Origin: a virus
Reading direction: 5' to 3' (one strand)
Virus record (IMG/VR): IMGVR_UViG_3300029723_000002
Coordinates: 1 to 64,000 of that record
DNA length: 64,000 nucleotides
The notes under the pieces were generated by a model. That model was not told where the DNA came from and did not search any database. It was given only the letters and a program-made list of their open reading frames with translations. Both the position numbers and the translations under genes were made by a program. How positions within the stretch are numbered: position 1 is the stretch's first letter; each line of letters opens with the position of its first letter. Positions 16,065-62,756 of this stretch are shown one piece after another.

Positions 16065-16149
16065 GCTCCTGTGGTGAAAATGGTAAACACACACCTCTTA
16101 AGAGGGTGCGCCGTAAGGCTTGTCAGTTCGAGTCTGACCAGGAGTACCA
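16065..16149 (+). tRNA. tRNA-Leu(UAA), type II, CCA encoded
   Basis: Hand-folded. Acceptor gctcctg/caggagt. Three-bp D-stem gtg/cac. Anticodon stem cacct/gggtg with loop cttaaga. Variable arm gccgtaaggc. T-arm gtcag-ttcgagt-ctgac. Discriminator a, then cca. Confidence 0.7.
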
Positions 16150-16622: not shown

Positions 16623-17267
16623 GAGGAGTTAGCTGAATGGCTTCGAATTAAAAACATTTTCATAACTTTACTTCGTCCTAATAAACGACTAACTAAATGG
16701 TATGGTGAAGTATGGCATATTAAAGATGAAGATTGGCATACTGATCTTGAAATTGAAGGTAATTCTGCTGAAGACTGTTTCGAGCAAGGACTACAGGTTG
16801 GATTATCTTTATTGCCTGATATAGTTGATGAGTAATTTTAAAATCCTGATAATGTAGATGCTCCTATTAACGAAAGTTAATTGCTACAAAAACAGGTTAG
16901 GTCATAGAGAGCACTATGACAAGGGATAAACTCCAATGAATACAGAAAGGAGATCCCGATGACAGGATGCATAGCAACCTCGATTTGAAAAATAGTTTGA
17001 TAAAGATTGTCATTTTTTTATAATTTCAAATAATACTATATCTACAGCAGCGACGCAGGAAGTTGTACAATCTGTTTTCAGAGCACTGTAATGAGTAGAG
17101 AGTCAGATGTATAGTATTATTTTATTAATTTATAAATAGTTATCGAGGCAATAGGAATTAGACAACGAACGAGACAGGAGTCTAAGAAGGAGGTATTTTA
17201 AAGAATAATACTATCGAGTCTCAACGTATTATTTTGAGAAATGTGTAGATAATTATTTACATTATAT

Positions 17268-17483
17268 ATTACAGTGATGGAATTGGTAGACATGTGAAGT
17301 TTATAGAAAGTATGTTGATTATATAGAAAATATATAAGAAGGGTAACTGTTAACCTAGGATACACATGTGATAAAGGCGAAGTAAATCTGCAGAAGCTCC
17401 CTGTTACTTCCAGACTTAATATTTTCTATGAACTTCAAGATTATTGGTACTAATCGTTGCAAGTTCGAGTCTTGCCTGTAATA
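17268..17483 (+). tRNA. split type-II (Leu-like) tRNA gene interrupted by a 126-nt insertion in the anticodon loop (exons 17268..17304 and 17431..17483)
   Basis: Perfect acceptor pairing attacag/ctgtaat. Leu-like D-arm atg-gaattggtaga-cat. Anticodon stem tgaag (17295-99) pairs with cttca (17433-37). Variable stem-loop gatta-ttggtac-taatc. T-arm gcaag-ttcgagt-cttgc. The anticodon-loop identity is ambiguous (UAU or UAG depending on the exact junction). Confidence 0.5.
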
Positions 17484-17627
17484 TATATTTATTTATATTT
17501 AACCTTTCAAGCTTCAGTAAACTTGGATAATTTGCTCAAATCGAGAGGTATACATAGATTAACTCAATGACCAAGTAAGAGAGTTAGTATTTGCTGCGAT
17601 GGTGGAATAGGTAGACACGAGGGACTT

Positions 17628-18451
17628 TAACAAATAAATTCATTTTTTATTTGGTATAGATAAAGCTTTTTAATATCTTTGTATACAATAAATATATAAA
17701 GAATATGTCAAAAGTAAAATGAACCAAAGAACTACTTGAAAAAATAGTACCTGAATGTTATTCATATGCAGAGGTGCTAAGAAGAGTGGGATTAAAGCCT
17801 ATGGGTAGTAATCCAAAGACTTTAATTAAAAAATTAAATGAATTTAACATAGATTATTCACATTTTACAGGACAAGGATGAAATAAATACGGACATCCAA
17901 GTTTTGGAAACTCAGGAAAAGCACTTACAAGTGTGTTGAATAAAAATAGTTCTTTGCCTTCTTCAAAGGTTAAAGAAAGATTACTAAATAATCACTTGAA
18001 AGAGAATAAGTGTGAAGTATGCGGTATTACTGAATGACAAGGTTCTCCAATTATATGTGAATTACATCACATTAATGGAGACACAACTGATAACAGGATT
18101 GAAAATTTACAAATATTATGTCCTAATTGTCATAGTCAAACAGATAATTTTAGACGCAGAAATGTGAAAAAGGTAGTGAGCACTCAGAAGGAAACTTCTG
18201 ATGTGAATGTAGGCTAATTCGGCGAAGGTATCAGCCTTATAAATGATAATAACGCCGAGCTAAGTAAGTAGAAGGAATTTTCGTTTTTGTTCGTAATTCT
18301 TAATATATCGTCCAACGGGAGTGTATGTATACTAGCACCGACGCGATAACTTCTACTTTAAATGTGTAGAGACTATACACCTACCTCCTAAACTGAAAAG
18401 CATGGAGAAGACATAGTCCACGTAATTAGCTGATTCTCAGGCTATTACGAG
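17628..18451 (+). mobile_element. group I intron (824 nt) carrying an HNH homing endonuclease ORF
   Basis: Core elements seen downstream of the ORF: P4 pairing ttcggcg...cgccga, an R-like gtagagactata and an S-like gaagacatagtcca. The last nucleotide is G. Confidence 0.6.
17705..18217 (+). CDS. intron-encoded HNH homing endonuclease (170 aa), 3 in-frame TGA = Trp
   Basis: MSKVK W TKELLEKIVPECYSYAEVLRRVGLKPMGSNPKTLIKKLNEFNIDYSHFTGQG W NKYGH...CEVCGITE W QGSPIICELHHINGDTTDNRIENLQILCPNCHS. The GQGWNK and EW tryptophans are encoded by TGA. Confidence 0.7.
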
Positions 18452-18525
18452 AAAATCCCTTGGGCAGTGATGCCCGTGCGAGTTCGATTCTCGCTCGCAG
18501 TACAAAAATTTAATTTTGTTGTGAT

Positions 18526-19634: not shown

Positions 19635-19721
19635 GTAGAAGTAACGCGTAAGGGATGACCGCACCAGTCTTCTAAACTGGAATCTGAAAAGATTTTGAGG
19701 GTTCGAATCCCTCCTTCTACA
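19635..19721 (+). tRNA. tRNA-like gene with a type-II (long variable arm) body, anticodon loop cuUCUaa (UCU) and an irregular acceptor-to-D linker; possibly a pseudo-tRNA
   Basis: Acceptor gtagaag/cttctac. T-arm gaggg-ttcgaat-ccctc. Anticodon stem ccagt/actgg with loop cttctaa. Sixteen-nt variable region aatctgaaaagatttt. There are 4 nt (taac) rather than 2 before the D-stem gcg/cgc. Confidence 0.35.
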
Positions 19722-19779
19722 CATAAAATGCAAGTTGTTGGTTTGAGCCCAACCAGGGATACAAATTATATTAATAACT

Positions 19780-20737: not shown

Positions 20738-20820
20738 GCTATTATAGCTTAATTGGTAGAGCAAGTGTAACATAGGGCCCTATGTTACTATGAGCGTTGG
20801 TTCGAATCCAACTAATAGTA
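20738..20820 (+). tRNA. tRNA-like element whose anticodon arm is replaced by a 22-nt perfect palindrome (gtaacataggg|ccctatgttac)
   Basis: Canonical acceptor gctatta/taatagt. Leu-like D-arm gct-taattggtag-agc. T-arm gttgg-ttcgaat-ccaac. No 5+7+5 anticodon arm can be drawn. A second orphan ggttcgaat and a 9-bp hairpin agtgctagg...cctagcact follow at 20824-20890. Confidence 0.35.
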
Positions 20821-21396: not shown

Positions 21397-21624
21397 ATGC
21401 TAAAGGTAGACATAACATATAAAGTAGAATCTGAAGCATGGAAACATATAGTGCTGAAAGCAAGTGATATTTTAGGATATAAGTCTGATTCTATTTCAAT
21501 CGGAACCTTATCTGATTTTAATACATTTGATGAGTTTTCAGCAACTCTCAGAAATACGCTACTTCGTGGATTAGGATTAGGTAATACTACGTCGTTAGTA
21601 GTTGGCAAGGTAGAATTCATATAA
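21397..21624 (+). CDS. hypothetical small protein
   Basis: Track ORF. Confidence 0.4.
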   Translation: MLKVDITYKVESEAWKHIVLKASDILGYKSDSISIGTLSDFNTFDEFSATLRNTLLRGLGLGNTTSLVVGKVEFI

Positions 21625-21747
21625 TTCTATAGAAACTGATAAGATAATAAACTGCCATTTATTGTCGAAACAGTATAGCTCTGGCAGGAGTGACGGTAAA
21701 GTATAAGTCTGCACCGTGGAGTGTAATGCTCTTTTTTACTTAACAAG

Positions 21748-21819
21748 ATTAGTATCGTATAATGGTTATTATACTGCGCCACCCAGCGGGAGATGTGAGT
21801 TCGAGCCTCACTGCTAATC
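21748..21819 (+). tRNA. tRNA-like gene, anticodon arm not resolvable (best fit is a 6-nt loop, caccca)
   Basis: Acceptor attagta/tgctaat. D-arm gtat-aatggttatt-atac. T-arm gtgag-ttcgagc-ctcac. The region gcgccacccagcggg does not fold into a canonical anticodon stem. Confidence 0.3.
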
Positions 21820-21835
21820 CAAATACTTTAATATT

Positions 21836-28855: not shown

Positions 28856-29261
28856 GGGGGATACAGGTATTGACTAGTATATCGAAAGTTATTAATCAAG
28901 CTGAGTTTGAATAATACTCATTAAACAGATTCAAAAAATAAACGCAAACAAAACTATTTCGAGAGCTATTAACAAGGTTAAGAACTCTCTCGCTCCTATG
29001 ATGACTCTGACTCGTTCTGAAGTTGCATATGCAGCGTAGGCTTGTATCGCCTTATAATAGATACAAACTGGGTTTCTTTGTTTAGACATAAAAACAAAGT
29101 GGTGGAAGTTGACCTAACTGGTCAGCCCTACTGTTCCATTGACGTTGGGAACTAAAAACTAATGCTATCGAGGTGTGGACAACCAGAAATGTATCCTAAG
29201 CTTGTAAGTATGTTAATAATAATAGAATACTAACACATGAGTTCGAATCTCATATCCTCCA
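28856..29261 (+). ncRNA. ssrA: candidate tmRNA (SsrA-like), about 406 nt
   Basis: The 5' gggggat pairs with the 3' atcctcc to give an acceptor stem with G3:U70 (Ala identity) and discriminator A. T-arm atgag-ttcgaat-ctcat. An internal reading frame starts at GCA (28944), 88 nt from the 5' end, and ends ...SEVAYAA-TAG at 29037-29039. The element sits in a 718-nt ORF-free, GC-richer intergenic region. Confidence 0.5.
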
Positions 29262-29282
29262 CTAAATCAATAAGTTACATAT

Positions 29283-37115: not shown

Positions 37116-37197
37116 GCCAACTTCGCATAGTGGTCGATTGCACGGATCTTGTAAGTCCGACCTTATAGGCACGTCAGTTCGAATCTGACAGTTGGCT
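37116..37197 (+). tRNA. type-II-bodied tRNA (3-bp D-stem, 13-nt variable arm) with anticodon loop cuUGUaa (UGU), one U longer than a Tyr GUA loop
   Basis: Acceptor gccaact/agttggc. D-arm gca-tagtggtcgat-tgc. Anticodon stem cggat/gtccg. T-arm gtcag-ttcgaat-ctgac. Variable region accttataggcac. Confidence 0.45.
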
Positions 37198-37205
37198 CAA
37201 AAAAT

Positions 37206-48692: not shown

Positions 48693-48763
48693 GCCTTTGT
48701 CGTTCAATGGTAGGACAGCGCTCTTCAAAAGCGTGTATGTGAGTTCGAATCTTGCCAAGGGTG
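48693..48763 (+). tRNA. opal suppressor tRNA: tRNA-Trp-like body with anticodon UCA (reads UGA as well as UGG)
   Basis: Hand-folded, 71 nt. Acceptor gcctttg/caagggt. D-arm gttc-aatggta-ggac, as in Trp tRNAs. Anticodon stem gcgct/agcgt with loop cttcaaa (U33, UCA, A37). T-arm gtgag-ttcgaat-cttgc. Discriminator G73, which is the Trp identity base. Confidence 0.7.
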
Positions 48764-48793
48764 CTAACTGATTAAAAACTAACAAGTTATAAT

Positions 48794-60912: not shown

Positions 60913-62756
60913 ATGGCTATCGAATTACCAAAAACAAAAATTCCTGCAGCAACCCAAGATCCTAAGTATCTGATTCTCTTTGGTTTGCCAAAGGTCAATC
61001 TGGCCCATTAGTTTAGTAATAGACTAAGTTGTATCGGGGAAAGTCGATGAATGCTAAAATTTTCTTACTTTGGTATTGGAATATACGGAAAATTTAACTA
61101 TATTTGTGTAGTTAAATTAAAAATTATATGAAAATAAACCAATTAAAGTATACAGAACAAGAAATTAAAAAGTTTGGTGAATATTATAAGTTAGGCCATT
61201 CTTTAAAAGAAACTGCAGAATATTTTAATGTTAATTATCACACATTAAAACAAAATTTGATACGATTTGGATATAGAACTCCAATAAAAAAATTAAGTAA
61301 CCAAAGAGTAACTAGTATTACTTATTTTGATTGTATTGACACTCATGAGAAAGCCTATTTTTTAGGACTGTTATTTGCAGATGGATACATTTCAAAAACT
61401 CCTTATGGAGTTAATATTGGAATTGCTCTTCAGTTACAAGATAAATATATCTTAGAGCATTTAAAGAGAGAAATTAATGTGTCAAATAAAATTTCAGATT
61501 ATAAAAACAGTTCAAAATTTTCTGTAACATGCCAACATATGTATAAGATACTAAGGAGTTTAGGGATAAAAGAAAATAAATCACATCTAGATTACAAAAT
61601 TCCTAATATTGATGAAAATTTTATCAATTCTTTTATACTTGGATATTTTGATGGAGACGGTTGTATAACTATAAAATCTACGGGCTATAGCGTTGTTTCT
61701 ATTTGCTGTAACTCTAAATTATTTTTAGAAGATATACAAAAATATTTAAATAAGTTAAATATTGCAACCCGACCTATTACTACAGAAAAAAGAATGCATA
61801 ATAATTTATTTGTTCTATATCTTTCAAAGAAAGAAAATCAGTTAAAATTTATGAATTTAATTTATAAAAATAGTAATATATTTTTACAAAGAAAATACCG
61901 TAAATTTTTGCAAATATCGAGCTAACTATTATAATAATATATAATAGTAGTGTAACGCGTAGGAAGTGAACCTGTTTTACAGAATATAATCTTCCCAAGA
62001 GTCTCCGAAACTTTTATTAAAAGTTTAAAATGTACGCTGAACTTATAGGAAACTATAAGAACTATAGGATAAAAAGCCTATAGGATAACAATTTGTGGAA
62101 AAACTACAATTTTAAGCACTCTAGAAAATAATCTAATTTTAGATACTGAATCAGGAAGTGATTATATTGATGCTTTAAAGGTTAAAGTATCTAGTGTAAA
62201 GGATATTAAGGAAGTTTGTAAAGCTATTATTGAGGCCAAAAGACCTTATAAGTACATTACTATTGATACTGTTACTGCATTGGAAGAAATTGTTAAACCA
62301 TTAGCCCTTAATTTATATAAAAACTCTCCTGTATTTGGAGAGAGGTTTGCTGATATAACTGATGTTACTGCTCTTCCTAATGGTCAGGGATATATGTGAA
62401 GTCGACAAGCTCTTGAAATGGTTATTGACATGGTATCTAAATGTGCTCCAAATATTATTTTATGTGGTCATGTTAAAGATGTATCATTAAATGAGGGTCT
62501 TGATGGCAGTGTTAAGGATTTAGACCTGACAGGTAAAGTTAAACGTATTCTTTCTGCTAGAAGTGATGCTATTGGTTTTTGTCATCGCGATACTAATGGT
62601 AACCTTTGTATTAATTTTGGTGGGGATGGTGAGATCCTTACTGGTTCAAGATGTCAACACCTAGCAGGTAAAGATATTATTGTAGCAGAGCGTCAGGAAG
62701 ATGGTTCATTTGTTTCACATTGGAATAGGATTTTTCCTTCATTAAGCAGTAAATAA
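60913..62756 (+). CDS. Sak4-like (AAA_24/RecA-like) recombination ATPase, split gene: exon 1 60913..60995, group I intron, exon 2 62096..62756; 1 in-frame TGA in exon 2
   Basis: Exon 1 is MAIELPKTKIPAATQDPKYLILFGLPK(gt|). Exon 2 is (t)GKTTILSTLENNLILDTESGSDY... The splice restores the Walker A GLPKVGKTT. The 5' exon ends with U and the intron ends with G. Confidence 0.55.
60996..62095 (+). mobile_element. group I intron carrying a LAGLIDADG homing endonuclease
   Basis: Its 5' segment resembles that of the intron at 53263 (caatctggccca... against agatttctgcctggct...). Shared core motifs gtgtaacgcgtag (61955) and aaaatgtacgctgaact (62029). Ends ...gataacaatttg. Confidence 0.55.
61128..61925 (+). 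CDS. intron-encoded LAGLIDADG homing endonuclease (265 aa)
   Basis: Two LAGLIDADG-type motifs: LLFADGYISK and ILGYFDGDGCITIK. Confidence 0.65.
   Translation: MKINQLKYTEQEIKKFGEYYKLGHSLKETAEYFNVNYHTLKQNLIRFGYRTPIKKLSNQRVTSITYFDCIDTHEKAYFLGLLFADGYISKTPYGVNIGIALQLQDKYILEHLKREINVSNKISDYKNSSKFSVTCQHMYKILRSLGIKENKSHLDYKIPNIDENFINSFILGYFDGDGCITIKSTGYSVVSICCNSKLFLEDIQKYLNKLNIATRPITTEKRMHNNLFVLYLSKKENQLKFMNLIYKNSNIFLQRKYRKFLQISS

Follow-up and report, generated by a model that had tools for sequence, protein, structure and literature searches.

What does a 126-nucleotide (nt) sequence do in the anticodon loop of a phage transfer RNA (tRNA) gene? The question is raised by positions 17268-17483 in the first 64,000 nt of the IMG/VR virus record IMGVR_UViG_3300029723_000002 (this whole stretch is called the window below), where both halves of a type-II, leucine-like tRNA lie 126 nt apart. 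All introns so far described in tRNA genes of bacteria and phages are, to our knowledge, group I ribozymes; our literature searches found group I as the only kind of tRNA intron for bacteria and phages, and no report of an element like this one. We conclude that the locus is a selectively maintained accessory gene for a type-II tRNA-Leu-shaped RNA, with a conserved 126-nt anticodon-loop insert that has no open reading frame (ORF). A novel small intervening element, one of the options named in a first-pass annotation of the window, is our leading reading: the insert would be a new intervening sequence, not of the group I type, excised after transcription, to which we give a probability of roughly 0.4.

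All parts of the gene are on the plus strand. Read from the sequence, the 5' exon (17268-17304) begins with the acceptor strand AUUACAG (17268-17274), followed by U8 and G9, a D stem and loop (17277-17293; 3 base pairs (bp), loop GAAUUGGUAGA), G26, the anticodon-stem strand UGAAG (17295-17299) and loop-side UUUAU (17300-17304). The 3' exon (17431-17483) starts with AA (17431-17432) and continues with the anticodon-stem strand CUUCA (17433-17437), a long variable arm (17439-17455) consisting of a 5-bp stem with a 7-nt loop, the T arm GCAAG-UUCGAGU-CUUGC (17459-17475), the acceptor strand CUGUAAU (17476-17482) and the discriminator A73 (17483). The acceptor strands ATTACAG and CTGTAAT pair at 7/7 positions and the anticodon-stem strands TGAAG and CTTCA at 5/5, with 133 nt between the latter, namely 7 loop nucleotides and the 126-nt insert, whose flanks provide U32 U33 and R37 A38. 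The hallmarks of a type-II tRNA (7-bp acceptor stem, D arm with G18 G19, 5-bp anticodon stem, long variable arm and T arm with a UUCRA loop) are found together only when the 126 nt are skipped.

The interrupted gene was missed by ARAGORN with default settings and by the Rfam tRNA model, including at its gathering threshold. When introns were allowed, ARAGORN called a gene at 17267-17484, and the same mode made 1 call in 30 dinucleotide shuffles of the window (1.92 Mb). After removal of 126 nt in silico, all 8 junction registers gave a tRNA called by plain ARAGORN. The top matches of the exons among 50,697 GenBank phage records were phage genes annotated as tRNA-Leu, and an Rfam search found no alternative complete, uninterrupted tRNA within 17255-17495. 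The paired stems, the intron-mode call and the exon matches bear out the annotation's view of a Leu-like type-II tRNA split by 126 nt.

The locus was recovered from 15 other human-gut phage contigs, which together with the window represent 7 haplotypes in three lineages. The window type constitutes lineage A; lineage B (L007, L008, L012, L019 and L020) has DNA mostly unalignable to the window and a different transfer-messenger RNA (tmRNA) tag; and in lineage C (L021 and L022) the neighbouring DnaJ-domain protein is just 47-48% identical. Pairs were counted on a structure made up of the cloverleaf, the helix at the insert junctions and two hairpins of the insert (53 pairs). Standard pairs occupied 264/265 base-pair cells, compared with 38-50% when the partners were slid by 1-3 columns. 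Compensatory double changes were found in two pairs: acceptor pair 5:68 is C-G in lineage A, the intermediate C.A in lineage C and U-A in lineage B, and one T-stem pair is A-U or G-C. Pairing was also retained in 10/11 single-step stem changes (binomial probability 0.006 if half of the transitions would retain it). The maintained pairing, the compensatory changes and the lack of an alternative tRNA together exclude chance, an ARAGORN ghost exon and a decaying pseudogene. The insert is present in all 15 of these contigs, and the entire gene is missing from six syntenic contigs (L003 and L028-L032), which have ORFs instead. Among the relatives, ENA ERZ28616562 scaffold_91 (168 kb) is without the gene, and IMGVR 3300045988_177412 carries it. 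No donor for the divergent 3' exon of L005 was found among the other tRNAs examined, and no split tRNAs were found in the more distant GenBank relative MT835492.

Across the 7 haplotypes, variable sites number 1/37 in the 5' exon (17272 C>U, compensated at 17478), 4/126 in the insert, 2/105 in its inner part and 14/53 in the 3' exon (inner insert versus 3' exon, Fisher p=4e-6). Identity to the window across the three lineages is 97.6-99.2% for the insert, 81.5-92.6% for the 3' exon, 82.7-96.4% for the downstream spacer and 39-96% for the upstream 136 nt. The changes in the 3' exon are nearly all transitions, at tolerated sites (variable loop, position 59, discriminator) or of a kind that keeps pairs, and this pattern resembles that of a tRNA evolving normally against a fast background. 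What is anomalous is that the weakly structured inner 105 nt of the insert, as judged from sequence variation, are constrained as strongly as the D-arm half. The difference between 2/105 and 14/53 variable sites shows that the role of the insert is clearly sequence-specific, and the tRNA body is under selection. Homing with one-sided co-conversion could be another reason for the near-identity of the 5' exon and insert across lineages.

The minimum free energy fold of the precursor and an enumeration of stems placed both ends of the insert in a 14-bp junction helix, with strands at 17300-17313 (UUUAUAGAAAGUAU) and 17419-17432 (AUAUUUUCUAUGAA), which is paired in all haplotypes. Anticodon stem and insert ends form one unbroken 19-bp helix, 17295-17313/17419-17437 (UGAAGUUUAUAGAAAGUAU with AUAUUUUCUAUGAACUUCA), containing two G.U pairs and no bulge. 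In L005 and L011, the junction-helix substitutions 17426 C>U, 17430 G>A and 17431 A>G give G.U, U-A and U.G, and pairing is kept. The transcript is predicted to have a normal tRNA body, the 5-bp anticodon stem of which is prolonged by the 14-bp helix and capped by a module of about 105 nt. Two hairpins were seen within the insert, namely hairpin 1 (17319-17337; UUAUAUA-GAAAA-UAUAUAA), in which 17321 A>G gives a G.U pair, and hairpin h3 (17379-17410; GAAGUAA...UUACUUC), the stem of which is invariant, hence covariation is uninformative; 17388 C>U in lineage C falls in the h3 loop. Segment 17322-17333 is a near copy of the 5' junction at 17302-17313 (UAUAGAAAAUAU versus UAUAGAAAGUAU) and offers an alternative 12-bp pairing with 17419-17430, and the h3 strands repeat the anticodon-stem strands GAAGU/ACUUC, so that alternative pairing with the exons is possible. 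These internal copies could form a switch or be the trace of an origin by local duplication. Folding of the whole insert gave z=-1.0 relative to shuffles. There is no ORF in the insert on either strand, and no complementarity above shuffles to the flanks or the window; a coding insert and one antisense to the flanks or the window were rejected on these grounds.

We favour excision because the insert occupies the anticodon loop, as tRNA introns do, and this loop is the site of the group I introns of bacterial tRNAs (10.1101/2020.01.27.920355). Further reasons are that a complete cloverleaf was called only with an intron allowed, that excision restores a standard tRNA at every one of the 8 registers, and that the flanks supply U32 U33 and R37 A38. 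In addition, the exons are similar to tRNA-Leu genes of phages, the cloverleaf and junction helix have been maintained in 7 haplotypes of three lineages, and the phage clade is intron-rich, with a bona fide group I intron in the very next gene. If the insert is excised, two cuts in the junction helix would remove it post-transcriptionally and the exons would then be joined, and either a small ribozyme of a new type or an RNA ligase acting after a helix-specific endonuclease might carry out the chemistry. The conserved inner module would be the catalytic or protein-binding part, or a by-product RNA with a function of its own. That the insert is a kind of tRNA intron new to bacteria and their viruses, excised by one of these two routes, is a more tentative proposal that we consider possible but short of probable.

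The insert boundaries used here, 17305-17430, are those of the first-pass annotation, and the junction may fall anywhere within 17300-17432. Depending on the register, the anticodon could be UAG/UAA, UAU, UUG/UUA or AUG/AUA; both loops that had been proposed, UUUAUAA and UUUAGAA, were recovered, at k=5/6 and k=4, respectively. Register k=4 (UUUA + GAA or AGA) gives a Leu anticodon (UAG or UAA) in every haplotype, and in L005 the anticodon is UAA in the loop UUUAAGA, which is like the CUUAAGA loop of the phage's tRNA-Leu at 16065. Register k=6 is the canonical 37/38 position and gives the loop UUUAUAA (anticodon UAU) in every haplotype, with an anticodon arm similar to that of the tRNA-Ile(UAU) of lineage B. 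The predicted exon-exon junction sequence is GACATGTGAAGTTTAGAACTTCAAGATTA under k=4, ending in ...GAAGTTTAAGATTTCAAG in the L005 type, and GACATGTGAAGTTTATAACTTCAAGATTA under k=5/6; the contiguous boundary sequences of an unspliced RNA are GTGAAGTTTATAGAAAGTATG and TATTTTCTATGAACTTCAAG.

A number of observations weigh against excision. Both putative splice sites are buried inside the perfect 19-bp helix, in which there are no bulges. The inner 105 nt fold at -13.3 kcal/mol, compared with a shuffle mean of -16.9 kcal/mol (z=+1.2), unlike compact ribozymes, and Rfam searches detected no known catalytic core in the insert. No RNA ligase, RtcB, kinase-phosphatase, RNase III or EndA was recognised among about 25 ORFs of the window searched against Pfam, PHROGs and PDB, the window covering less than half of a 137-168-kb genome. 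No insert-free allele was found in IMG/VR, in JGI/ENA metagenome contigs or in GTDB, and the adjacent group I intron is polymorphic, whereas the insert alone is not. Under k=4, the anticodon is not the same between close haplotypes, and the tRNA would be redundant with other Leu tRNAs of the same genomes. Lineage A has A as its discriminator, and lineages B and C have G; A73 is a Leu identity element in bacteria, and an A-to-G change between lineages is odd for a Leu acceptor.

Several known classes of element were considered for the insert, and most were rejected. A bulge-helix-bulge (BHB) intron requires 3-nt bulges with 4-bp spacing, which are absent from the continuous 19-bp helix. Known ribozymes, riboswitches, small RNAs and all other Rfam families gave a single match at E<=10, to SNORD19B (15.5 bits, E=8.2), which is noise. 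A mobile element or miniature inverted-repeat transposable element was rejected; the insert is single-copy in the window and in every contig examined, all its IMG/VR copies lie within this tRNA, and none of 185,579 GTDB genomes contains it. The flanking repeat differs between haplotypes and provides no consistent target-site duplication. The long, near-perfect basal helix typical of RNase III-type intervening sequences is present (19 bp, two G.U pairs).

One rival explanation is a group I intron, miniaturised or degenerate, that has kept its guanosine-dependent self-splicing, perhaps aided in trans by one of the many full-size group I introns of the phage. In the window and in lineages B and C there is a junction with U before the 5' site and G at the insert end, the end of the 5' exon (GUUUAU) has a candidate guide in GUAAAU (17382-17387) with U.G at the splice site, and group I introns are plentiful in the phage clade and present in the neighbouring tRNA. 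However, the guide candidate lies 78 nt into the insert and its P10 would overlap P1, no R/S core motifs were seen in the insert by reading, and Intron_gpI (RF00028) gave no match at E<=10 on 17255-17495 (241 nt), while the same type of search detected the neighbouring tRNA-Leu(UAA) intron with 31.1 bits and E=6.6e-6. The lower size end of group I introns is about 200 nt; at 126 nt, the insert is well below even the smallest seen here (273 nt, L021), and neither the neighbouring 822-nt intron nor the 273-nt ORF-less intron of lineage C resembles it in sequence. The rule of a U at position -1 and a terminal G serves to map bacterial group I tRNA introns (10.1101/2020.01.27.920355), and the annotation had noted that the insert ends in G; this is true of the window but not of L005 and L011, where position 17430 is A and the G comes one base later, so that the rule is broken there and would leave a 6-nt loop. 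The size argument of the annotation against a classical group I intron holds, with the covariance model silent, and its degenerate mini-intron is not supported and in our judgement improbable. A dead tRNA-Leu gene, inactivated by a small mobile or duplicated segment and persisting by chance, is about equally improbable. The gene is dispensable, being absent from the six syntenic contigs, and would be redundant with other Leu tRNAs, its internal copies of junction and anticodon-stem strands suggest an origin by local duplication, and the insert ends resemble imperfect inverted repeats; but compensatory, wobble-preserving and pairing-preserving changes have accumulated over three lineages that share no more than 47-48% identity in a flanking protein, the insert is conserved better than the rest of the locus and constrained far more tightly than the flanks, and it is single-copy with no consistent target-site duplication, so the inactivated tRNA suggested by the annotation is unlikely. 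An artefact, in which ARAGORN joined an unrelated upstream ghost 5' exon to a 3' fragment, is effectively refuted. Such behaviour is documented (10.1101/2020.01.27.920355), and the ARAGORN call at 21594-21820 in the window is a case of it; here, however, 17255-17495 holds no alternative complete tRNA, the compensatory change 17272/17478 ties both halves together across the insert, and the 5' half is kept in all lineages, unlike the ghost exon at 21594.

The main rival is an unspliced, tRNA-scaffolded RNA that works as one piece and never decodes, which is a possible though still tentative account. In this case, the tRNA body would give RNase P and 3' end-processing, CCA addition and stability, and the 19-bp arm would display the 105-nt module for protein binding, as a guide or as a decoy. 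It is consistent with substitutions at 17426, 17430 and 17431 that preserve the helix itself rather than a loop, with an insert conserved like the D-arm half and far above the 3' exon or flanks, with a gene gained or lost only as a whole unit (15 other contigs with it, 6 syntenic contigs without) and with a varying discriminator. Two further conserved tRNA-shaped genes without a usable anticodon loop (20738-20820 and 21748-21819) lie at most 4.5 kb away. On the other hand, the module has no significant predicted structure, no detectable complementarity to the flanks, no target in the window and no known family, and we know of no case in nature in which a complete cloverleaf holds a module in its anticodon loop. 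The flanks also retain exactly the residues of a 7-nt anticodon loop, though U-A pairing explains that too. An unspliced scaffold fits the data almost as well as an excised element.

Four kinds of known system can be compared with the split gene. Group I introns in the anticodon loops of bacterial and phage tRNAs (cyanobacterial tRNA-Leu(UAA), Azoarcus tRNA-Ile and the neighbouring gene at 17593-18503) share with the insert the type of host gene, the location, an ORF-less state and an intron-rich phage clade. In contrast, the insert has no group I core, about half the minimum size and no conserved terminal G, its putative splice sites lie in a 19-bp helix rather than in a short P1, and it shows no presence/absence polymorphism on its own. 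Archaeal and eukaryal BHB introns resemble the insert in that k=6 is the canonical 37/38 position and their anticodon-intron pairing has a parallel in the base pairs between the 3' end of the insert and nucleotides of the anticodon loop; unlike them, the insert has no 3-nt bulges 4 bp apart and is nearly invariant, while the sequence of BHB introns is normally free to vary. We know of no splicing endonuclease in bacterial viruses. The intervening sequences of bacterial 23S rRNA are removed by RNase III, after which the ends are not rejoined and the rRNA functions as separate fragments. They too replace the terminal loop of a functional RNA with an extended hairpin of about 100-150 nt on a long perfect helix, but cutting of a tRNA anticodon arm without ligation would remove the anticodon. 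RNAs of tRNA shape or with a tRNA handle include tmRNA, the phage T4 stable RNAs "species 1/2", the tRNA-miRNA (microRNA) genes of murine gammaherpesvirus 68 (MHV68) and engineered tRNA scaffolds; here a tRNA-like body lends processing and stability to an attached functional RNA. The cargo of engineered scaffolds sits on an extended stem where the anticodon loop would otherwise be, which is precisely the arrangement of the split gene, whereas the natural examples have either an incomplete cloverleaf (tmRNA) or a cargo that lies beyond the tRNA part.

The neighbourhood of the split gene contains further unusual RNA genes. The tRNA-Leu(UAA) gene at 17593-18503, 110 nt downstream, has an 822-nt group I intron at the classical U34/A35 site, and an HNH endonuclease ORF (17660-18217) inside the intron contains three in-frame TGA codons. 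This intron is absent in L003, L005 and lineage B, and is a 273-nt ORF-less form in L021, L022, L023, L028-L030 and L032. The spacer between the two tRNA genes (17503-17549) has a 52-nt core that is identical in lineages A and B and retained in L003, which is without the split tRNA; it gave a weak match to the abiF RNA motif (26.5 bits versus a gathering score of 37, E=0.17). In the tRNA-shaped gene at 20738-20820 (Rfam tRNA, 49 bits), a 22-nt perfect palindrome (GUAACAUAGGGCCCUAUGUUAC) replaces the anticodon arm with a 9-bp stem and a GGCC loop, without an anticodon loop, and in L023 two base pairs of this hairpin and several acceptor pairs are changed compensatorily.

The region at 21594-21820 was called by ARAGORN as a second split tRNA with a 130-nt "intron" and was rejected: the ghost 5' exon is not conserved in L023 and overlaps the end of an ORF, the supposed intron contains a terminator-like hairpin, and a complete tRNA-like gene is present at 21748-21819. 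This gene (Rfam, 33.5 bits) has no U33 and an 8-nt anticodon loop containing ACCCA; compensatory changes were found in its acceptor stem (two) and T stem in L004, L005 and L023, and the deletion in L003 leaves exactly the 21748-21819 part. Just upstream is a conserved structured region (21635-21737), in which the hairpin loop CUGCCA (21652-21657) might form a kissing or pseudoknot pair with its complement UGGCAG (21682-21687), and the terminator-like hairpin with its U run (21718-21737) has changed compensatorily in L004. The lengths of tRNA-Arg(UCU) (19635-19722, 88 nt) and tRNA-Thr(UGU) (37116-37198, 83 nt) are due to an extra hairpin in the variable region; in the close relatives L003-L005 a 75-nt tRNA-Arg stands at the same place as the former, with a short stretch that is unalignable. 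A free-standing ORF resembling LAGLIDADG homing endonucleases (61116-61925; Pfam LAGLIDADG_3, E=5.6e-17) lies beside replication genes. The motif ATCGAG, found about 54 nt upstream of two tRNAs, was not general.

The window has 30% G+C and about 19 tRNA or tRNA-like genes, together with a tRNA (48693-48764) whose UCA anticodon would read TGA and a tmRNA (28856-29262) with a tag ending in AYAA. In-frame TGA codons occur in many genes from about 53 kb on and in the HNH ORF of the intron, and are mostly absent from genes at 13-50 kb. This distribution is the early/late code split described for crAss-like phages (PMC7886860). The DnaB-type helicase shares 25-27% identity with its counterparts in Bacteroides crAss-like phages and 40% with those of unclassified human-faecal phage scaffolds, and the relatives are human-gut assemblies with contigs of 106-168 kb. 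Zeta crAss-like phages have genomes of 145-192 kb, TGA or TAG reassignment, an "unprecedented" intron density and "unknown forms of gene fragmentation" (PMC7886860). The host phage group is crAss-like, TGA-recoding and from the human gut, and it resembles the Zeta group by these features.

Standard tRNA finders overlook this gene, and the tRNA and intron content of such phages is consequently under-counted. If the insert is excised, a conserved insert in a phage tRNA that is not a group I intron would represent a new splicing route in the bacterial world, through a small ribozyme or protein-dependent tRNA splicing, and such an element might account for part of the "unknown forms of gene fragmentation" of Zeta crAss-like phages. 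If the RNA is left unspliced, it would be a natural counterpart of the tRNA scaffold that engineers use for RNA display. Either outcome would be relevant to the manipulation of translation by the abundant gut phages of the crAss assemblage, with their TGA recoding, suppressor tRNAs, tmRNA and many introns.

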